A stretch of 64,000 bases of DNA from Candidatus Omnitrophota bacterium (GCA_042577285.1 JBHPDM010000002.1:6917-70916); one strand, 5' to 3'. Numbered from the stretch's first letter, positions 208 to 8,614 are shown. A program made the numbers and translations. Notes: generated by a model not told the origin, from the sequence alone.

Positions 208-414
208 TTATTCATCTGCGGACTCTAATTCAAGTCTCTTTGGGGGAACTGCGCCATAGTTGCCTATACCTTTCCTTCTTGGGTTGTGGCCAAACCTATA
301 CTCATGCAACGGGCATGCGCTGCCACACTCCTTCACTTTCTTGTATGATCCGCCGTCGGGACACATAAATAGGCAGACGGAGCGAATAGCTTGCATTGCT
401 GTTAGTCGTCTCAT
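208..414 (-). CDS. Small Cys-rich (zinc-finger-like) protein of unknown function, of a kind common in phage and integrative elements
   Basis: Motif: CLFMCPDGGSYKKVKECGSACPLHEYRFGHNP (C-x3-C ... C-x3-CPL-x2-YRFG). An internal ATG at 414 has a GGGAGA RBS. The ORF-track version extends to a TTG at 459. Confidence 0.5.
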   Translation of the reverse strand: MRRLTAMQAIRSVCLFMCPDGGSYKKVKECGSACPLHEYRFGHNPRRKGIGNYGAVPPKRLELESADE

Positions 415-516
415 AATTTTCTCCCACTTACCTATCTTGGTGATACCACCTTTCACCAAGATGTACTTATAGAAACTCTTGAATGATGAAGTATGTTGAA
501 AATAAAAGAGTTACGC

Positions 517-626
517 CATTCATTCATATTTAACTATCGCTTTCTAAACTATATATTAACTCTTTGATTATCAATGGGTTATATCATTCATTCATTGCCA
601 TCTTTCACGTGACGGATGAATGAATG
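517..626. repeat. Three copies of the 11-mer CATTCATTCAT (517-527 direct, 585-595 direct, 616-626 inverted)
   Basis: Read directly from the sequence. Copies 2 and 3 form an 11-bp inverted repeat that spans the stop codon of the ATPase gene. Confidence 0.7.
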
Positions 627-1598
627 ATCCCTTGAAAGATCCCCCAGTGGTTGGGACCACGCATATGGCTTCCTATTGTTATACAAGAACAACTTCTTCT
701 CTGCCTCTGCTTTCTTAATCGCACGGAATGCCGTCGCCTCAGAAACCTTAGCTTTACCCGCCAATGATTTGACTGCTATCAACCTATCAGGCATCTTCCC
801 TGTGATCCTAATCACCTCTTCGGTTGAAAGCTTGACCATCTTGCCTTTTTCAGCTGAACCCTTAACCTCAAGCCATAGCTGGTCATTTATAGCGATTATG
901 ATTGACTCGGGCTGCTCTCCGTTCCTCACTTTGTCGAAGTCCATCTTAATGACTTTACCTTTTTTGCTCAGATTGATAGCCGTATCAACCCAGGCCGGTA
1001 TAACCGTTGAACCCCTCATCCGCTGGGTACCCCTGCGATCGCCTTTGTTATGGTGGTGTATCAACACTACTGATATGCCAAATTCCTGGATCAACAGATC
1101 TAGCCTATCGAGGACTCTCTTCGTTTCCTGCTCTGAATTCTCGTCTCCTGAATGCACCTTATACATGCAGTCGATGATTAAGACGTCGTATTTTCCGCCC
1201 CCCAATGCTTCCCTGAGCCTTTCAAAGCTATCATTATTGTTAATGTCGAACCAAAAAATAGTATCCAGGAATAGCTCTCCTGCTTCCAACCCCCTATATT
1301 CCAGAATTCTCTTGAGGCGCTTCTGCAGGTTCCGCGGGCTTATCTCGAAATTTAAATATAAGACCTTCTTCTTCTCCGGAATCTCAAAGCCCAAATAAGG
1401 CAAGCCGGAAGCCAACGAAACGGCCAAGTTAAGCGCTATCAAGCTCTTTCCGATCCCCTCTGGTCCGGATATGATGGCTTTAGATCTCGGACAGAGTATA
1501 CCTTGACCCCACCAGTTATCTGTCTCGGGGAATTTATGCTCTAAGAACTCAAGTGCGTCTTTAGGTTCAAACTCAATATGGAATGTTGCAACGCTCAT
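588..1598 (-). CDS. RepA/AAA_25-like RecA-fold ATPase with a C-terminal HTH-like tail (replication/mobilisation module of the island)
   Basis: Walker A is SGPEGIGKS, Walker B is VLIIDC, and there is an LIHHHNK motif typical of RepA-like ATPases. An AAGGAG RBS lies upstream of the ATG at 1598. Confidence 0.7.
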   Translation of the reverse strand: MSVATFHIEFEPKDALEFLEHKFPETDNWWGQGILCPRSKAIISGPEGIGKSLIALNLAVSLASGLPYLGFEIPEKKKVLYLNFEISPRNLQKRLKRILEYRGLEAGELFLDTIFWFDINNNDSFERLREALGGGKYDVLIIDCMYKVHSGDENSEQETKRVLDRLDLLIQEFGISVVLIHHHNKGDRRGTQRMRGSTVIPAWVDTAINLSKKGKVIKMDFDKVRNGEQPESIIIAINDQLWLEVKGSAEKGKMVKLSTEEVIRITGKMPDRLIAVKSLAGKAKVSEATAFRAIKKAEAEKKLFLYNNRKPYAWSQPLGDLSRDHSFIRHVKDGNE

Positions 1599-1863
1599 CT
1601 CTATCTCCTTTTCTATCTCTATTTGTGCTGAATATGATGCTCTTTAGGTCATCTAATGACTTGACGTAGGATGAGACTTCAACTGCGCCGTTGTTCCAGT
1701 ACGACTGGATGAGGCCTTCTATTTCGGGAGCCGGCTCGAAAATAAAGTATACCTTTCTTTCTTCGCGCTCGTGGTCTATGAGTTTTACGTTCTTTGAACG
1801 GAGAAAAGCACAGAGGTATAAGTCTGAAGACCTGAAGCCAATTTTACCCTTACCCTTATCCAT
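1573..1863 (-). CDS. Small hypothetical protein (resembles DUF5659-type small proteins)
   Basis: 96-aa ORF with a GGAGGT RBS. The FRSSDLYLCAFLRSKNVKL...VYFIFE pattern is similar to DUF5659. It overlaps the downstream ATPase start by 26 nt. Confidence 0.5.
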   Translation of the reverse strand: MDKGKGKIGFRSSDLYLCAFLRSKNVKLIDHEREERKVYFIFEPAPEIEGLIQSYWNNGAVEVSSYVKSLDDLKSIIFSTNRDRKGDRDERCNIPY

Positions 1864-2066: not shown

Positions 2067-2621
2067 TTAATATTTCGATAACTCCTGATTTATCTTATTT
2101 AGTAACCGCTGAAGGCGAGTCGCGTAAAGTCTGGCCTTTGGAAAATATGGCATCATTTTATTTGTAGCGAAACGAGCGGGGTAATCGGTCAGAATCAATT
2201 CAACGACATCAATCTGCTTTTGCAGGGTTTTTATATATCCTGGGATCATTTTAACTGTTTCTGGGCTAAACTGATTCTCTTGCCCATGCGAAAACTCTAA
2301 GACCAATATAACGAAAACTGAAGTAACACAACTTTCGAGTATTTTCGCTTGGGGAAACACGACATTAAAATCCGTCGCTTCCTTCGAAGTGAAACTGCTC
2401 GTATCCAGCCCTTTCATTTCGCCTGTAAAAACAGATAACTCTTCTCCAAAGCGCTTCAGTTCTATCATAGCGTCACCATTAATTGGATAATTGATTTTGT
2501 CGAACTTCACGGAGGATCCCCTATCCTCAGGCTGAAACCTTGATTTTATAGCCCTAACATTAATTATGCTTACTGCGATAATAATGCATATTACAACAAG
2601 CGTTACATTGGTCTTCTTCAT
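2067..2621 (-). CDS. Hypothetical membrane-anchored protein (last gene of the island cargo operon)
   Basis: N-terminal hydrophobic anchor VTLVVICIIIAVSII. A GGAGTGAGGTGA RBS precedes it, and it starts 8 nt after the upstream stop. Confidence 0.6.
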   Translation of the reverse strand: MKKTNVTLVVICIIIAVSIINVRAIKSRFQPEDRGSSVKFDKINYPINGDAMIELKRFGEELSVFTGEMKGLDTSSFTSKEATDFNVVFPQAKILESCVTSVFVILVLEFSHGQENQFSPETVKMIPGYIKTLQKQIDVVELILTDYPARFATNKMMPYFPKARLYATRLQRLLNKINQELSKY

Positions 2622-2629
2622 ATCTCACC

Positions 2630-3670
2630 TCACTCCCTTGGCTCATCTTCCTTGCTCAAGTCCAAGTAAATAATCCCCCAGTGCATCAGGTTGCTGTTCC
2701 CGTACGTATCCCCGCGCGTAATGTTCTCCAGCGCCAAGAGGTTCATCCATTGGTCCTTTGCCAGCTTATCGTCAGGATTCTCAGCCAGATGCTTCTTCAC
2801 CACCTGCACCATCTCCCAGCGCTTCTTGTTATACTCCTTGTTAGGTATGGTACCCATGTTGCTCATGCCGTAGTGGAACATCTGCTCGACAGTCCTCCAC
2901 TTGTAGAATGTCTCGTAAAGGACAGGGGAATATCTTTTCTTCTCGAGTATCGATGAAAGAATCTTCAGCCCTTCCTCTGTTGGGCTCCCTTCGAAGTCAT
3001 CGGGGGCACCGAAGCTGTCGCTGATAAGGTAGCAGTCAGAAATCCTCAACTCAATACAATCTTCAGCTGGGCTGCCATTGTATTTCTCCCTGAGGGGCTT
3101 CAAAAGCTCATAGGCCTTTTCGCCAACGCCATCCTTCTTGCTCTCCAAGAGTTCCAAGGCCTTGAGATAATCCTTCCTGTCACCTTTGTCGCTTATCAGG
3201 CTTACCTCTGCATCCTTGGACTCGGCTAAATACTTGCCCTTACCGTAGACCTCCACCAGGAGCCTTGCGCCCTCTTCCGTCAACTCGGCGAATGGCTTGC
3301 CAACTTCCGCCCATTCGCGCTTGTGCACATCCTCTTCCTTCTCTTCGATGCCCCCGTAGAAAACCTGAAGCTTTTCCGCGACCAAATCCTCCAGACCCTT
3401 GAACTTTTCTAGCTTGGCAGGCACTTCCATCGCACCGAGCCTATCCCTTATCTCCTGCAGGTCAGCCACAGCCTGCCCTGAGGCTTCCTTGATATGCTCT
3501 GTATCCTTCTCAGGATCTCCCCAACCGAGCCATAGAAGCATATCTGTGGTTACTGCCTCGATCTGCTGCATTGCGTAGACTAGCTCATCAAAAGCGTCTT
3601 CAGTCTCAGAAGCCAAAATGACGCCAGCAAATAATAACAGGGCTAACGTGATAATAATTACCTTACCCAT
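2630..3670 (-). CDS. Hypothetical secreted helical protein
   Basis: The start was moved to the internal ATG at 3670 (MGKVIIITLALLLFAGVILASE is signal-peptide-like). That ATG lies within the last 8 nt of the upstream gene (ATGGGTAA). Confidence 0.6.
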   Translation of the reverse strand: MGKVIIITLALLLFAGVILASETEDAFDELVYAMQQIEAVTTDMLLWLGWGDPEKDTEHIKEASGQAVADLQEIRDRLGAMEVPAKLEKFKGLEDLVAEKLQVFYGGIEEKEEDVHKREWAEVGKPFAELTEEGARLLVEVYGKGKYLAESKDAEVSLISDKGDRKDYLKALELLESKKDGVGEKAYELLKPLREKYNGSPAEDCIELRISDCYLISDSFGAPDDFEGSPTEEGLKILSSILEKKRYSPVLYETFYKWRTVEQMFHYGMSNMGTIPNKEYNKKRWEMVQVVKKHLAENPDDKLAKDQWMNLLALENITRGDTYGNSNLMHWGIIYLDLSKEDEPRE

Positions 3671-4283
3671 CAATCTCTTCCTCGCTGTATCCTTCAGAAG
3701 CAAAATAATACGGGTTGTATTCTTCTTCCTCGATATCCCTACCAAGTACATAATCAGCCGTATTCCTGAAAACACTTGAAACGATAGGCGTAAGAAACTC
3801 TACGTCATCTTCGTGTTGCTCTGCCTTGCGACGCCTAAACACAGTTGTAAAAATCCAGCGCAGCAACATGGGAATCCTCGACTCATCCCCGTCCCGTAAG
3901 AGACTATTGGCATAGAATTCAATTTTAGGTGGGCTTGGTTCGAATGTGCGCCTGTAAACTAGATATAAATCCTCATCCTTGATGCTAGGTCCCATTTTCC
4001 ATAAGTAATCCCTGTCGTCAAGCAGAGAAAGGTAGCAAAAAATATACAGCTTCCCCAGGATACCCAGAACCCTTTTCTTGAACAAGCCCTCTTCGAGGTA
4101 ATCTTCCAATAAGCCTATGCGCCTGAATATGAACCCGAAAGCGGTAATTGAACTTGCCAGAAGACACCTGGACAACTCAGCCAGGATATCCAAATCAACC
4201 GAAGGGATTTCTATCAGGGAATCCATCAATTTTACCTCTAACTCTATATATAGCAAGATTAGCTTCTCTTGGGGTTTATCCAT
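3663..4283 (-). CDS. Hypothetical cytoplasmic protein with an acidic C-terminus
   Basis: 206-aa ORF in an operon context. No recognisable motif. Confidence 0.55.
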   Translation of the reverse strand: MDKPQEKLILLYIELEVKLMDSLIEIPSVDLDILAELSRCLLASSITAFGFIFRRIGLLEDYLEEGLFKKRVLGILGKLYIFCYLSLLDDRDYLWKMGPSIKDEDLYLVYRRTFEPSPPKIEFYANSLLRDGDESRIPMLLRWIFTTVFRRRKAEQHEDDVEFLTPIVSSVFRNTADYVLGRDIEEEEYNPYYFASEGYSEEEIDG

Positions 4284-4301
4284 ACATTCAACATCCTATC
4301 T

Positions 4302-4793
4302 TTATAGTAGCTTTATCAGCTTCCCTTTACCCCAAGAACTCTTAGCTTCCCCCTGAGCCTGTTGCATAAGCGAATAGGCCTTCTTCTTCCGAGTCTCTAC
4401 TTCTTTTAACAAAACAGCTAGAACTCTCTTGTAACCTTTATTTCTACTGCTTACCTTCTTGAATTGACTACGCGTCATCGGAATAGAAGAACCATAGAGG
4501 CACTTCACTTTCGCATATTCCTTGCTGGGTATAAACCGAGCCAAGTTGACATACGCATTCCTATAAGCTTCGGCCTTCTTCCTATCCTTGATCAGCGCGC
4601 AGTAAAGAATCCAGAATTCAAGAGCCTCTCCTATGTCTTTCTTGGGGTGGGGGAGTAGCTTATCTGGTATCCCGTAGGCCATGAACTCGAAATCAGTGGC
4701 CACATTAACAAAATCTCTCACGATATCACTGAACCTCTGCAGTTTTCTCCCTAATTCATCACCTTTTCTTTTCATGTCCTTACCCGCTCTCAT
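4302..4793 (-). CDS. Hypothetical basic protein
   Basis: The start at 4793 forms an ATGA overlap with the stop of the upstream gene. No recognisable motif. Confidence 0.55.
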   Translation of the reverse strand: MRAGKDMKRKGDELGRKLQRFSDIVRDFVNVATDFEFMAYGIPDKLLPHPKKDIGEALEFWILYCALIKDRKKAEAYRNAYVNLARFIPSKEYAKVKCLYGSSIPMTRSQFKKVSSRNKGYKRVLAVLLKEVETRKKKAYSLMQQAQGEAKSSWGKGKLIKLL

Positions 4794-5596
4794 TCTATTT
4801 TGCTGAATTTCTCTCCATCCCACCGGTAGATTTCCTCATATCTCTTGCCAGTGTTATAGTTCGGCTTATAGTCAGACTCCTCGAAAACGAAAGCAGCTTT
4901 TCCGTCTATAGTCTCTAAGCGGGTATTCGGAGTCCCGGAACCGTGTTCGAATATGACCTCATGACTATCCTTAAACTTGATCACTTTAGCTCCGCTCGAA
5001 TGTACCCCCGCCGCGTAAGTTATCGCCACCTCCGATGCGCCGTCCCCGTCTAAGTCGAGCTCTCTCGCCTCATAGCTCCTAAGGTCATCCTCTACTATGA
5101 TCCTGTTGACTATCTCCTGCTGCGCATCAGTAAGAGACGGAAGCCTGATAAACGTATAATTACACTTGTACTCACCAAATTCCCAGCAGTACACCAGATC
5201 GGTCTCAGGATATTCTTCCGTACCTTCCATCTTTATGACGACCTCCCTGAAGCCGTCACCATTTATATCTTCCACATCTACTGTTTCGACATTCTGAAAA
5301 TTTGGGAGCGCATCCCAGTAGATCTCTTTTCCCTGACTATCGAATATCTTGACCACCGCCCCCGTATCATCACCCCAATCATCTTCTATGTTAGTACTGA
5401 ACCTGCAGTAATCTATTACCTTAACGCTCTCAGGCTTGCCATCATTGTTAAGGTCTATATCCTTGAAGTATGCTACTAAGGTGCGCCCGTAGTCTCCCTC
5501 GCCTATAGGACAGCCCCCTTGGTAGGCGGAAGCAGGTGTTAAAAATAAGTAGGTTGCCAAGACCATCAAAGCCACTATTAACTGTTTTTTATTCAC
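4790..5596 (-). CDS. Exported protein with three D-x-[ND]-x-D-G Ca-binding-like (FG-GAP/EF-hand-like) motifs
   Basis: Signal peptide ends LTPASA. Motifs are DLNNDGKPE, DINGDGFRE and DLDGDGASE. The GTG start overlaps the HNH gene stop by 8 nt. Confidence 0.6.
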   Translation of the reverse strand: MNKKQLIVALMVLATYLFLTPASAYQGGCPIGEGDYGRTLVAYFKDIDLNNDGKPESVKVIDYCRFSTNIEDDWGDDTGAVVKIFDSQGKEIYWDALPNFQNVETVDVEDINGDGFREVVIKMEGTEEYPETDLVYCWEFGEYKCNYTFIRLPSLTDAQQEIVNRIIVEDDLRSYEARELDLDGDGASEVAITYAAGVHSSGAKVIKFKDSHEVIFEHGSGTPNTRLETIDGKAAFVFEESDYKPNYNTGKRYEEIYRWDGEKFSKIE

Positions 5597-6596
5597 TTGC
5601 TTTCTGTTTTAGTTTATTCTTATCTTCTACTAACCCCAAATGATGCATCTTCCTGTGACAATTAGGACATAAGGCTACCGCGTTGTTAATGGTATCCGTT
5701 CCGCCTTCTGCACGCTCCTTGATATGATGACACTCTAAAAATGGTTTGCCGTGGCGAGATAAGAAAGGTGCCGGCTGATCGCACAATTCGCACTTTCCTT
5801 TGGCTCTATTTTTTGCATTTGCGGATACATAAGGATTTCTAGGATAGTAAATTGATGTGGCTTTACGTGGAGGCTTAGTTTCTGCCTGAGAAGCAAGTTG
5901 CTTAACCTGCTTAGGATCTTTACCAGCGGCTTTATATTCTTCCCCTGCTTCCTCTTGCTGAAACTCTTCTCTGGTGAGTAATATTTTAGTGGCCGGCTGC
6001 TTCTCTGTTATGGAGGACCCTGATAATTCACCCTTTAACTCTCTGTAAACACCTATTAGATTACTTAGATCGTGGGCTAATGTATCCGTATCAGGAATGC
6101 TGTCTTTTGAATAATACTTGCCACATATAGTCCCCAGTTCATAACCTTTACCAAGCGTATGCTTGGCGTGCAGGTTTATCTTATAGGCCGGAAAGTCACC
6201 CAATGCAGACTTTATTATGCCCCTATAGTGTACTGCTGTGCTCTTTATCTCCTCTCGCGCCTTCTTAAGTGGATGGTACTTATCCTCAAACTGAGTCCAG
6301 CCTATGCCTAGCGTTAAATATACGCCCTCCATATTGGCATCAAAGAGGTAGACAATATAGTATCCCTTCTGAGCAGAAGTAGTAATACTTTTATCAAATA
6401 TGCCTACCCACGGAATCTCTGCCCAATTGCCTTGGCCGGGAGCGCCTTCAATAAGATATTGTTTTGGGATATGTGCCGTGGCTTTGATTACTGCTGGTAG
6501 GTCACGCCTGATATAATTTGCGAGGCTATTGCCGGCTAATGCGCCTCTAGTATTAGCCTTATATTCATTTAATACTTTGAGTAATGCCTGCTTCAT
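5589..6596 (-). CDS. McrB N-terminal-like (DUF3578) DNA-reader domain fused to an HNH nuclease; putative modification-dependent (type IV) restriction endonuclease
   Basis: The N-terminal half has GAPGQGNWAEIPWVGIFDKSITTSAQKGYYIVYLF (DUF3578/MrcB_N signature). The C-terminus has CELC...ECHHIKERAEGG...NAVALCPNCHRKMH (HNH). Confidence 0.75.
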   Translation of the reverse strand: MKQALLKVLNEYKANTRGALAGNSLANYIRRDLPAVIKATAHIPKQYLIEGAPGQGNWAEIPWVGIFDKSITTSAQKGYYIVYLFDANMEGVYLTLGIGWTQFEDKYHPLKKAREEIKSTAVHYRGIIKSALGDFPAYKINLHAKHTLGKGYELGTICGKYYSKDSIPDTDTLAHDLSNLIGVYRELKGELSGSSITEKQPATKILLTREEFQQEEAGEEYKAAGKDPKQVKQLASQAETKPPRKATSIYYPRNPYVSANAKNRAKGKCELCDQPAPFLSRHGKPFLECHHIKERAEGGTDTINNAVALCPNCHRKMHHLGLVEDKNKLKQKASE

Positions 6597-6646
6597 ACGA
6601 TTCCTTACATACGCTACTGCATCGCAACTATATGCTAATTATACCA

Positions 6647-6817
6647 CTACTTAGGTATCATTTGAGCCTTTTTCTTGATCTCTAGAGAAATAAGTATCTG
6701 TCTTAGTTCCCTAGAGGAAAGATTATCGGTACGCCTCAGGCCGCAGTCATACCGTAAGAATAGTTGTAGCCGGATCAGCGCCTTTGTTTCTTGGATTATC
6801 TTATTGGTAGGCTTCAT
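6647..6817 (-). CDS. Small 56-aa ORF leading the cargo operon (not in the ORF track)
   Basis: My own translation is MKPTNKIIQETKALIRLQLFLRYDCGLRRTDNLSSRELRQILISLEIKKKAQMIPK. It is preceded by a strong GGAGGTGGGAG RBS. Confidence 0.35.
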   Translation of the reverse strand: MKPTNKIIQETKALIRLQLFLRYDCGLRRTDNLSSRELRQILISLEIKKKAQMIPK

Positions 6818-6877
6818 ATCTCCCACCTCCTACCACAATAGACGCAGGAAGTGGGGGAATCTAACTAACTATTTTTC

Positions 6878-6907
6878 TTGGCATAAGCCTCTTTTGGGGA
6901 GTATAAT
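6878..6907 (+). promoter_or_regulatory. Promoter TTGGCA-18 nt-TATAAT, placed 7 nt before the ATG at 6915 (implies a leaderless mRNA)
   Basis: Read directly. There is no SD between the -10 box and the ATG. Confidence 0.4.
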
Positions 6908-6914
6908 TGGAATT

Positions 6915-7154
6915 ATGGATAAACTCTATTGCCCAGAATGTAAAAGTGAATTAAAAATTACAGAGCTGGATATGGCGGGGATTAAAACTACCCCTATTAG
7001 CTTATTCAACTACCAAAAACAATGTGAGAAATGCAATAGTTTCTTAATCTTTAATCCCAAAACCAAAACCTTTAGAAAGCTATCTCCCTTGAAACGATGG
7101 TTTAATAATAGATTCGGTATTACAATGGAGATGAGAAAAACTAAGGAGGAATAA
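6915..7154 (+). CDS. Small zinc-ribbon protein (CPEC...CEKC)
   Basis: Sequence: MDKLYCPECKSELKITELD...QKQCEKCNSFLIF. The upstream 80 codons of track ORF 6675-7154 are antisense to the 56-aa ORF and its RBS, so they were discarded. Confidence 0.5.
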   Translation: MDKLYCPECKSELKITELDMAGIKTTPISLFNYQKQCEKCNSFLIFNPKTKTFRKLSPLKRWFNNRFGITMEMRKTKEE

Positions 7155-7303
7155 TGGAAAATTGGTATTTGTATAGGCTCTTGGAAGACTATCTTTCAAC
7201 ACACCCTGTGCGACAAGGTATATTCGCTGGTCTCGTCAGCGGAACCGTAGTAGTAGTGTTAACGGAGTTCATTAAATACTTAGTAAACTTAGTAAGACGA
7301 TAG
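7154..7303 (+). CDS. 49-aa single-pass membrane microprotein, translationally coupled to the zinc-ribbon gene
   Basis: TAATG stop/start overlap. An AAGGAGGA RBS sits at 7143-7150. The hydrophobic core is GIFAGLVSGTVVVVLTEFI. Confidence 0.45.
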   Translation: MENWYLYRLLEDYLSTHPVRQGIFAGLVSGTVVVVLTEFIKYLVNLVRR

Positions 7304-7476
7304 CCCCTAAATCTGCCCTACAATCAACGAATTCTCCCATTAAAATTAATCAACCACTACCATCCCAAACCTAAAAATGGGTCACGTAAATTTCTCTGGC
7401 TTTGCATAAGCATCCTACCCCCTTGGGGGGGGGAAGCGGGTTTTATTCACGAACGGGGGCACAGTAAGAACGCCGC

Positions 7477-7505
7477 TTGACAATGTCATTACATGATGAT
7501 ACACT
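7477..7505 (+). promoter_or_regulatory. Sigma70-type promoter for the RHH gene
   Basis: TTGACA-17 nt-TACACT. Confidence 0.45.
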
Positions 7506-7514
7506 CAGCTCATC

Positions 7515-7655
7515 ATGAGCAAGAAGAAAGGCAGTTTCATCCAGATAAGGATCAGCGAGGAAGAGAAGAGGAAGATCAAGCAAGAGGCTGGGAAGAAAGG
7601 ATTTGACTCCATCTCCGCCTTCCTGCTCTGGCTTTTCAGGAAATCCTGCAGGTAA
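7515..7655 (+). CDS. Ribbon-helix-helix (CopG/MobC-like) small protein, 46 aa
   Basis: My own translation is MSKKKGSFIQIRISEEEKRKIKQEAGKKGFDSISAFLLWLFRKSCR. The pattern (beta strand, then EE--K-IK--A---G-S-S-FL) is typical of RHH/MobC accessory proteins. Confidence 0.5.
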   Translation: MSKKKGSFIQIRISEEEKRKIKQEAGKKGFDSISAFLLWLFRKSCR

Positions 7656-7747
7656 TCATACCCACCGAATCACCCCTCGTGACCAAATTGTGACTATAAT
7701 TGGTCAAAATCAACCAAAAGTGATCTAAGTTGGTATAAAATGAAAAT

Positions 7748-7767
7748 CCCCGTAAGTGGCTACGGGG
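7748..7767. terminator. Hairpin CCCCGTA-6 nt-TACGGGG, 11 nt past the tRNA-Asp 3' end, T-rich on both sides
   Basis: 7-bp GC-rich stem. On the minus strand it is followed by ATTTTCATTTT. Confidence 0.45.
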
Positions 7768-7778
7768 ACTTCATTTAT

Positions 7779-7857
7779 TGGCGGGCCCGACGAGATTTGA
7801 ACTCGCGGTCTTCAGATCGACAATCTGACGTGCTGAACCAGGCTGCACCACGGGCCC
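7779..7857 (-). tRNA. tRNA-Asp (anticodon GTC), CCA encoded
   Basis: Hand-folded cloverleaf. Acceptor GGGCCCG/CGGGCCC, anticodon loop TTGTCGA, T-loop TTCAAAT. Confidence 0.9.
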
Positions 7858-7870
7858 ACTAACTTGTATC

Positions 7871-8614
7871 CTAAAATTTGTATACGAAAGAGCCTTGCAA
7901 CAATAGACCGTTTATATCTAAATCCAAGAGATCGTCGCTATGGGAGAAATCCACCTTGATGCCCTTATAGCCTATGTCGATATTCACAAATTTATGCGGC
8001 TTCAACCGGGCAACCGCCCTATATTCGATATAAGTATCTCCTGCATAGCCGATCCCGTTTATCTGGGCTAAAAGACTAAGATACTTAGTACAATCAAGCT
8101 CGGCTGCCACCCCGGCGCTGGGCAAGGGCAGAATCTCTGAATAGGTCTCATTATTGCCTCCCCCCTGCAGGTTCAGGCTGGCATCGTAAACCGTTAACTT
8201 TAGGAGTGGCGCTAAAGAAACACCCAGCTCATCATCACCTAAATGCAGGAGGTCGTACTGATACTGCGCCTCAAACAGGTTGTATTCCAGTTTAGTCTCT
8301 ACGGCGACGCTGATACTATAGGTCTTATTCTGGAAATCTATGGATCTAGTAAGAATCTTGGAGCCTGAGAATTCGAAGCTTGCGTAATCAAAACTAAAAT
8401 GGTGCTTCTTGCCGTCTAATCTTACATTGACCCCTACTGCCTTATCATCGCCAAGCCCCAAGTCATCCTCCAGGTCGAGCCTTGTCCCTGCGGATTGAGC
8501 ATTTCCTGAGATATCCAGATCCTGATAGCTTGGTCCTGCGGAGATCTCCAATGCCCAGGCAGTACTCCCGCAGAATAAAGCCATAACCACTACTGCGATA
8601 ATCTTCTTCATCAT
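7871..8614 (-). CDS. Outer-membrane beta-barrel protein
   Basis: Signal peptide ends STAWA. The sequence has an alternating beta-strand pattern, and the C-terminus ...GSFVYKF ends in an aromatic residue, as is typical of OMPs. Confidence 0.6.
   Translation of the reverse strand: MMKKIIAVVVMALFCGSTAWALEISAGPSYQDLDISGNAQSAGTRLDLEDDLGLGDDKAVGVNVRLDGKKHHFSFDYASFEFSGSKILTRSIDFQNKTYSISVAVETKLEYNLFEAQYQYDLLHLGDDELGVSLAPLLKLTVYDASLNLQGGGNNETYSEILPLPSAGVAAELDCTKYLSLLAQINGIGYAGDTYIEYRAVARLKPHKFVNIDIGYKGIKVDFSHSDDLLDLDINGLLLQGSFVYKF

Follow-up and report, generated by a model that had tools for sequence, protein, structure and literature searches.

A probable mosaic cargo operon with a predicted stand-alone type IV restriction gene on a tRNA-Asp-integrated element of Candidatus Omnitrophota

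Small islands integrated at tRNA genes, phage satellites of the phage-inducible chromosomal island (PICI) or P4-like kind, and prophage "morons" carry defence genes and other accessory cargo. In this study, we closely examined a stretch of 64,000 nucleotides (nt), here called the window, from Candidatus Omnitrophota bacterium GCA_042577285.1 (JBHPDM010000002.1:6917-70916; C2:6917-70916) and in it a run of seven co-directional open reading frames (ORFs), here named g1 to g7, that extends from position 6817 to 2067 on the minus strand. The second gene, g2, joins a DUF3578 domain to an HNH domain; according to the review by Loenen and Raleigh (PMC3874153), DUF3578 is the part of McrB (McrB-N) by which an extrahelical modified base is bound, and McrA has HNH as its nuclease. 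By its domain make-up, the predicted g2 fusion is a variation on the modular build of known type IV enzymes. The g1-g7 region is probably a mosaic accessory (cargo) operon of a 9.1-kb integrative element and not a dedicated multi-component defence system. The assembly comprises 1.25 Mb in 62 contigs and is 78% complete, and public records label relatives of the window genes as Candidatus Omnitrophota.

A recent preprint (bioRxiv 10.64898/2026.05.20.726742) on a cohort in which Omnitrophota are prominent counts surface genes and restriction-modification among the cargo classes of mobile elements, and the restriction-modification cargo includes a restriction enzyme specific for 5-methylcytosine. 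The same preprint reports an Omnitrophota element that carries an integrase module of 8.7 kb with a similar make-up. This kind of arrangement is therefore already known. Literature searches on DUF3578 with HNH, on Omnitrophota prophages, and on Omnitrophota restriction-modification or integrases, with supplements left out, returned no description of the operon, the g1 family, or the promoter-like motif reported here.

The seven ORFs and the promoter-like sites at either end of them are as follows:

6837..6865, minus strand: promoter-like motif GTTAGATT-N4-CA-N5-T-N-CGTCTATT, immediately ahead of g1 and its Shine-Dalgarno sequence
6647-6817, minus strand: g1, 56 amino acids (aa), ATG start with GGAGGTGG ahead
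5589-6596, minus strand: g2, 335 aa
4790-5596, minus strand: g3, 268 aa
4302-4793, minus strand: g4, 163 aa
3663-4283, minus strand: g5, 206 aa
2630-3670, minus strand: g6, 346 aa
2067-2621, minus strand: g7, 184 aa
2006..2034, minus strand: strong promoter-like site between g7 and the replication/integration module, TTGACA-17-TATACT, 11/12 matches, with TG

These ORFs and their junctions had been listed in an original prediction made from the sequence alone, and all of them are present as stated, including the small 56-aa ORF with its ribosome-binding site at the head. With a codon model derived from 477 long ORFs in this genome, all seven scored far higher in frame than in either shifted frame (for g5, 0.137 versus -0.48 and -0.82), and g1 to g7 therefore look coding and not like chance ORFs. 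Translational coupling of the whole run, as originally proposed, holds only in part: overlaps or short gaps connect g2 to g7, whereas g1 and g2 are 50 nt apart and therefore not coupled. The GTG start of g3 lies 8 nt within g2, g3 and g4 are joined by ATGA (4790-4793), an 18-nt gap separates g4 from g5, g5 and g6 overlap by 8 nt (ATGGGTAA at 3663-3670), and an 8-nt gap separates g6 from g7, whose ribosome-binding site, GAGGTGA, lies 8 nt past the g6 stop. The start of g4 is ambiguous, being either the ATG of the overlap (4793) or one 18 nt further in (ATG 4775, 157 aa); the identical database protein P0034 (157 aa) begins at the latter, which turns the g3/g4 junction into a 14-nt gap without ATGA overlap. 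Beyond g7, the co-directional run continues with genes for a DUF5659 protein, an AAA_25 protein, a small ORF, an Xis-like protein, and an integrase.

The g2 product matched MrcB_N/DUF3578 (PF12102) with an E value of 6.3e-57 over profile positions 1-182 of 183, HNH (PF01844) with E 2.7e-11, and the PADLOC family mREase_IV with E 3.9e-19. Its residues 229-320 matched EcoKMcrA (6ghc, E 1.1e-18), with further matches to the HNH parts of ScoMcrA and TagI and to 5zmm (E 3.7e-7). The HNH residues are complete, with CxxC at 269 and 310, HH at 290-291, N at 304-305, and H at 314 and 318. No methyltransferase family (Pfam, NCBIfam) was found among 13 ORFs scanned, namely, the 12 island ORFs in the window and one past tRNA-Asp, with the Xis-like gene and the integrase left out. 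Within the same limits, neither g2 nor the island ORFs contained a McrB-type NTPase (AAA+) or McrC, and the sole ATPase among them was the AAA_25 RepA/DnaB-like helicase. In agreement with the original prediction of a stand-alone McrB-N/HNH enzyme, g2 is a predicted single-chain type IV (modification-dependent) restriction endonuclease.

Like EcoKMcrA and ScoMcrA, g2 has a C-terminal HNH domain (CxxC...HH...N...CxxCH) and an N-terminal modified-DNA reader, without a methyltransferase or NTPase partner, but its reader has the McrB-N/DUF3578 fold and is not the McrA N-terminal domain or an SBD/SRA domain, and its activity and specificity are predicted. With Escherichia coli McrBC it shares the DUF3578 DNA-binding domain of McrB, whereas the AAA+ GTPase domain of McrB and McrC were not found in the scanned island ORFs and the nuclease of g2 is the fused HNH. 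At E <= 1e-10, g2-like genes were found in 1 of 300 other Omnitrophota genomes. Full-length homologs elsewhere reside in a Priestia plasmid defence island and, there without related neighbours, on a Paenibacillus plasmid, and in genome G256 a full-length homolog follows an SLFN-type helicase with an S24 domain.

Two identical copies of 50 bp from the 3' half of tRNA-Asp, located at C2:5596-5645 (attL) and C2:14695-14744, enclose the array as a direct repeat with a spacing of 9.1 kb. The integrase ORF (C2:5650-6747, 365 aa), which lies to the left of the window, ends 5 nt from attL; it is 50% identical to a Phage_integrase and Int_N protein on the viral contig L037, the homolog from which its family is inferred. 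Between the repeats, the minus strand carries g1 to g7 followed by the genes for DUF5659, AAA_25, an 83-aa protein, the Xis-like helix-turn-helix (HTH) protein, and the integrase, and three small ORFs (ribbon-helix-helix, 49-aa, and zinc-ribbon) lie on the plus strand near the tRNA. The array is thereby part of a tRNA-integrated, site-specific integrative element and not of the chromosomal core. The remaining features of the element in the window are as follows:

7779..7857, minus strand: tRNA-Asp(GTC) (ARAGORN; Rfam tRNA, 65.7 bits), with its 3' 50 nt (7779-7828) forming attR
7515..7655, plus strand: ribbon-helix-helix-like ORF, 46 aa, with NikA-like (E 3.1e-4) and MobA (E 1.1e-3) matches, both under the curated cut-offs
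7154-7303, plus strand: 49-aa ORF that follows the zinc-ribbon-like ORF
6915..7154, plus strand: zinc-ribbon-like ORF, 79 aa, divergent from g1, with CxxC pairs and sub-threshold zinc-ribbon Pfam matches only
6878-6907, listed with the 79-aa ORF: promoter-like TTGGCA-18-TATAAT
1573..1863, minus strand: DUF5659 backbone protein (PF18903, E 4.6e-11)
588..1598, minus strand: AAA_25 (RepA/DnaB-like) helicase (PF13481, E 8.4e-32)
208..459, minus strand: backbone ORF, 83 aa, with Cys pairs; a 54%-identical homolog lies beside xis and int on viral contig L037
1..69, minus strand: 5' part of an AlpA/Xis-like HTH gene, 62 aa, with the remainder left of the window; a 45%-identical homolog on L037 carries HTH_17

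The backbone points to temperate phages. Homologs with 45 to 57% identity to the integrase, the Xis-like protein, the 83-aa protein, g1, and the ribbon-helix-helix protein (57% for the latter) are all encoded on L037, the cargo of which differs. The AAA_25 helicase, the helicase part of which matches the PHROG families "DNA primase" and "primase/helicase" (E values down to 1.1e-27) in their helicase part only, is likely the element's replication protein, and the 83-aa protein has no family match in Pfam, PHROGs, or NCBIfam. The element resembles tRNA islands and PICI/P4-like satellites in its integrase at one end, AlpA-like HTH protein, likely replication helicase, and tRNA att site with direct repeat, and, like these and prophage morons, it has a cargo slot, here with a restriction gene and surface proteins, and backbone homologs on phage-like contigs. 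Capsid-remodelling or packaging genes such as those of PICI/P4-like satellites were not recognised among the island ORFs (PHROGs, Pfam), several of which are unannotated, and AAA_25 has no recognisable primase domain.

The corresponding empty site is present in two genomes of the same family, G011 and G022, in which tRNA-Val and tRNA-Asp are about 55 nt apart and followed by unrelated ORFs without the island. In G011, V-ATPase genes adjoin the tRNA pair as they do in the window; the neighbouring ORFs in G022 were not identified. No DNA match to the left flank of the island was found in G001, G002, G011, or G022, and an Rfam scan of positions 6500-7900 detected the tRNA only. In the window, the two tRNA genes are separated by an ORF of 247 aa (7871-8614, minus strand) that has a signal-like N terminus and lacks a Pfam match. 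Given the spacing of only about 55 nt in G011 and G022, this ORF therefore looks like a second, older insertion.

A DNA search with the 4.76-kb array as query against 40 relatives matched in only two small parts, namely, the first 45 to 130 nt of the query (in G001, G022, and G011) and a stretch of the HNH core about 40 nt long (in three other genomes). What is conserved at the head is the promoter-like motif, GGAGGTGG, and the start of g1. A pattern of the motif with 19 specified bases was matched in 15 contigs of IMG/VR and, in metagenomes, in at least 124 stretches, counts given without a chance expectation, and nearly every match had GGAGGTGG and a start codon behind it at a constant spacing. 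The motif also stands ahead of ORF6N-like, SpoVG-like, ComEA-like, and other genes. Its likeliest role is that of a lineage-typical promoter, and it may represent a promoter consensus specific to Omnitrophota and their phages. We had also considered an att or recombination site and rejected it, as the motif precedes SpoVG-, ComEA-, and ORF6N-like genes at promoter distance from the Shine-Dalgarno sequence. A second copy in the genome of the window (G000:C32:35-69) lies ahead of an ORF6N-like gene; there, about 150 nt with a long hairpin-like inverted repeat (G000:C32:60-230) split the motif from its Shine-Dalgarno sequence and look like a small MITE-like (miniature inverted-repeat transposable element) insertion.

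The g1 product is a basic helical protein with homologs of 55 to 57% identity in G001 and G022. An alignment of its family (A4) holds 22 members, i.e., 21 distinct motif-preceded ORFs and the window's own; g1 has no Pfam family, and the family profile finds neither a consistent Pfam family nor, at E <= 1, a chain in the Protein Data Bank (PDB). The motif-bearing viral contigs are temperate-phage-like, with integrase, cI/Cro-type HTH, RecT, YqaJ, AAA_24 with DUF669, and cell-wall hydrolase genes, and on four viral contigs g1 is convergent with the integrase at the prophage end. The genes behind g1 vary: an HTH gene and a type III restriction-modification pair in G022, ribbon-helix-helix, resolvase, and second recombinase genes on L037, and at other loci mixed orphans, a P63C-domain protein, a metallo-beta-lactamase, or phage replication genes. 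Behind the G001 homolog (L018:10205-14840), some nine small ORFs for lipoproteins, secreted proteins, or membrane proteins, none with a Pfam match, form a run that ends at two serine recombinases and is a second island with envelope-type orphan cargo.

Among the loci examined, i.e., 17 g6 loci (nine of a first set and eight added), 6 g3 loci, g2 loci in Omnitrophota (1) and on plasmids (2), and 93 motif-bearing loci, with the contexts of g4 relatives outside this set, no second locus held two of g2 to g7 together. Other g2-g7 genes were absent from all 17 g6 loci, all 6 g3 loci, and all 93 motif loci, and at the g6 and g3 loci homologs of the remaining island genes were lacking as well. Codon usage is heterogeneous as well: g3 (0.25) and g6 (0.30) score like the host genome (0.26 ± 0.07), and g2, g4, g5, and g7 score 0.10 to 0.14, about 2 standard deviations (SD) lower, with a third-position GC content (GC3) of 0.39 to 0.50 versus 0.57. 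The differing distributions and codon usage of g2 to g7 and their mobile-element setting therefore support the reading as unrelated cargo in one transcription unit. The original prediction had offered this next to a novel multi-component defence module, and the latter is contradicted by the missing co-occurrence, the very finding that the prediction had named as speaking against it.

Downstream of g2, the original prediction had seen five genes without recognisable motif, which is correct for g4 to g7, but not for g3. In searches of Pfam, PADLOC, PHROGs, and NCBIfam, the FG-GAP match of g3 (PF01839, E 1.7e-7, 31.4 bits versus a cut-off of 22.1) was the only one for g3 to g7. With PADLOC-DB 2.0, which had been suggested as a check, g2 was the only operon member to match; g3, g4, g5, and g7 hit no family at E <= 0.1, g6 gave only JetB (E 0.019) without a passing stretch, and g1 only AbiZ (E 0.0064, 43 residues). 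Well-known housekeeping envelope families, named earlier as another possible outcome, were not what the orphans turned out to be.

The g3 product is an acidic, exported protein with a signal-like hydrophobic segment followed by ASA at its N terminus, two FG-GAP-like halves, and three Ca-binding-type loops (D-x-N/D-x-D-G motifs at residues 48, 110, and 181), as originally described. It resembles FG-GAP/integrin-alpha Ca-binding repeats in its match over the cut-off and its three DxDxDG loops. In contrast to FG-GAP propellers, it is small (268 aa) and its two halves of about 110 to 130 aa occur separately elsewhere, and it is therefore not a seven-bladed propeller; in 6 of 300 other Omnitrophota genomes, the halves (5-140 and 155-265) are matched by small exported proteins that are separate from each other. 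The g4 product is a basic, cytoplasmic, helical protein (AF2 model, pLDDT 86.6) of a small uncharacterised family with 10 weak relatives (E 2.5e-9 to 8.1e-4) and conserved FG-PD-LLPYPK and FIP-EKY motifs; it has no Pfam match, and no PDB match at E <= 0.001.

For g6, an N-terminal hydrophobic segment predicts export, and the all-helical AF2 model (pLDDT 89.7) has a four-helix bundle at the N terminus and a TPR-like domain at the C terminus, which agrees with the secreted helical protein reported before. Foldseek found no PDB match to this model at E <= 0.001, and VIA-align wide returned generic four-helix-bundle and TPR rows only, with Z <= 9.7, in the chance range of helical repeats; the likeness of the C-terminal half to TPR domains of TPR-like periplasmic proteins (Z about 9) falls in the same range. 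The 30 relatives (34 to 50% identity) form a patchy Omnitrophota family, members of which were detected in 11 of 400 other genomes of the phylum and in 0 of 60 from the window's own family, and the g6 profile found no relatives on viral contigs. At five loci (L007:9043-9987, L202:1469-2464, L203:7048-8037, L205:8893-9891, and L206:6896-7864), a secreted protein of about 314 to 332 aa, in one case with a weak CsgG match, directly adjoins more distant g6 relatives; it may be a conserved partner that is missing from the window. Furthermore, two similar proteins of 101 to 104 aa without Pfam match, both starting MLKRYQV.LNDW, are encoded in different genomes (L003:9034-9348 and L030:1905-2210, both minus strand), one adjoining a g6 relative and the other directly upstream of a g3 relative.

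The two remaining genes, g5 and g7, are ORFans, each finding only itself among 5.8 billion clustered proteins. The g5 product is acidic and has no hydrophobic segment; it lacks a match in Pfam, PADLOC, PHROGs, or NCBIfam, and its Atlas structure rows all have TM < 0.4. The g7 product has an N-terminal membrane anchor, as had been proposed, with hydrophobic segments at 1-29 and 92-112 and a helical body, and its Atlas neighbours, a viral hypothetical cluster with TM 0.59-0.62, are low-score leads only.

Taken as probable cargo, the operon would work as follows. The element would have inserted site-specifically into the 3' end of tRNA-Asp with a backbone akin to that of temperate-phage contigs of the same phylum. 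Cargo transcription would start at the promoter-like motif and pass first through the small conserved leader gene g1, the same pair that precedes quite different genes in other phages and islands. The McrB-N domain of g2 would bind modified cytosine in incoming DNA and the HNH domain would cut, without a methyltransferase, NTPase, or partner protein, which would plausibly protect host and element against phages with modified cytosine. The genes g3 to g7, two for exported proteins (g3 and g6), one for a cytoplasmic protein (g4), and two ORFans (g5 and g7), would have been acquired independently, and their envelope proteins may serve surface modification of the lysogenic-conversion type independently of g2. 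On this account, g2 to g7 would be co-transcribed and partly coupled because compact mobile-element cargo is packed in this way, not because they form one machine.

Several observations weigh against the cargo reading. A functional unit would also be expected to have such overlaps (g2/g3, g5/g6) and such short gaps between its other genes, and no strong promoter-like or terminator-like site was found within g2 to g7 on the coding strand. The ORFans are untraceable, so that the missing co-occurrence is uninformative for g5 and g7. In G001, which belongs to the same genus, g1 is likewise followed by lipoprotein, secreted, and membrane orphans. Finally, at 7 of the 17 g6 loci, or 8 of 17 if the Schlafen AlbA_2 protein of L199 is counted, the g6 relative has a prophage terminase or genes of the restriction, nuclease, or defence type no more than about 6 kb away. 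The genes near the g6 relatives are as follows:

L006: methylase and DpnII
L007, L008: MBL/RMMBL, HSDR_N_2
L009: nuclease, HNH_2, PLD-SNF2
L203: methylase and terminase
L204: PD-(D/E)XK and type III restriction-modification
L205: OLD-type ATPase, Eco57I methylase

Such genes occurred in 1 of 10 control windows (13 kb each, placed at fixed offsets on five of the contigs that carry g6 loci). One-sided Fisher tests gave p = 0.099 (7 loci) or 0.057 (8 loci) for a comparison in which the loci are mutually related, neighbours were picked by eye, and E-value cut-offs differed between scans. The link between g6 and defence islands is hinted at by these data and is a lead, not a result. One control window, L208 (G350:C7:38000-51000), is itself a defence island with an MTES_1575-type nuclease/helicase, a DarT and Macro pair, a ThsB-like TIR protein, a TIR_2 protein, and a serine recombinase.

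These points bear on two ways in which g2 might belong together with its neighbours. The operon could provide two-layer protection, with g2 as a DNA barrier and g3, g6, and g7 as co-selected but independently acting exclusion proteins at the envelope, which would mask receptors or block DNA entry of rival phages or elements like the superinfection-exclusion proteins of prophages. All three products are exported or membrane-anchored, g6 relatives lie near restriction, defence, or prophage genes more often than controls (7 to 8 of 17 versus 1 of 10), the G001 element with its envelope-type orphans behind g1 carries serine recombinases, and on phage contigs g1 is found at the integrase end, the usual site of accessory genes, with small lipoprotein genes near the integrase. 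However, the g6 enrichment is not significant and comes from related loci, about half of the g6 loci and all 6 g3 loci have housekeeping-type surroundings, g3 to g7 match no PADLOC model, and known exclusion families were not recognised in Pfam, PHROGs, or NCBIfam, so that we regard this explanation as unlikely. A single novel multi-component system, in which the nuclease depends on g3 to g7, for instance on envelope sensors that signal to it or gate it, would account for the tight packing behind one promoter-like site at the head, and at L009 an HNH_2 protein and a PLD-SNF2 helicase are encoded directly upstream of a g6 relative. It is nevertheless very improbable in view of the absence of a second locus with any two of g2 to g7, g2 homologs that stand without such partners, the uneven codon usage within the operon, and the lack of any relatives of g5 and g7. 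Moreover, reader-HNH enzymes such as EcoKMcrA are single-chain proteins according to the table of Loenen and Raleigh (PMC3874153).

Decay or spurious annotation of g5 and/or g7 on the island would explain why they have no relatives and why their codon scores lie about 2 SD under the genome mean, and the Shine-Dalgarno-like AGGA of g5 is weak. Both frames are, however, intact over 206 and 184 codons and score clearly above their shifted frames, g7 has its GAGGTGA site, g5 overlaps g6 by 8 nt, and the Atlas models reach a pTM of 0.74 (g5) and 0.67 (g7), which makes decay highly unlikely. On balance, we prefer independently acquired cargo around a self-sufficient predicted restriction enzyme.

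A wider idea, which we put forward as speculation and consider unlikely, is that the motif and g1 mark a slot for accessory genes that is conserved in temperate phages of Omnitrophota and in the small integrative elements derived from them, that the exported g6-type proteins, patchy in distribution and often encoded beside restriction or defence genes, act at the envelope as a new class of anti-phage or exclusion factor, and that the operon pairs a DNA-level with an envelope-level barrier. The analysis indicates that, on a mobile island, close coupling of translation does not argue for a multi-protein system. It documents a small, phage-related, tRNA-integrated element with a type IV restriction gene in the Omnitrophota, a phylum known almost only from metagenomes, and defines a conserved promoter-like motif and a small leader-protein family that are common to Omnitrophota phage contigs and islands. 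Furthermore, it flags the exported g6 family as one whose neighbourhoods are worth a guilt-by-association analysis.

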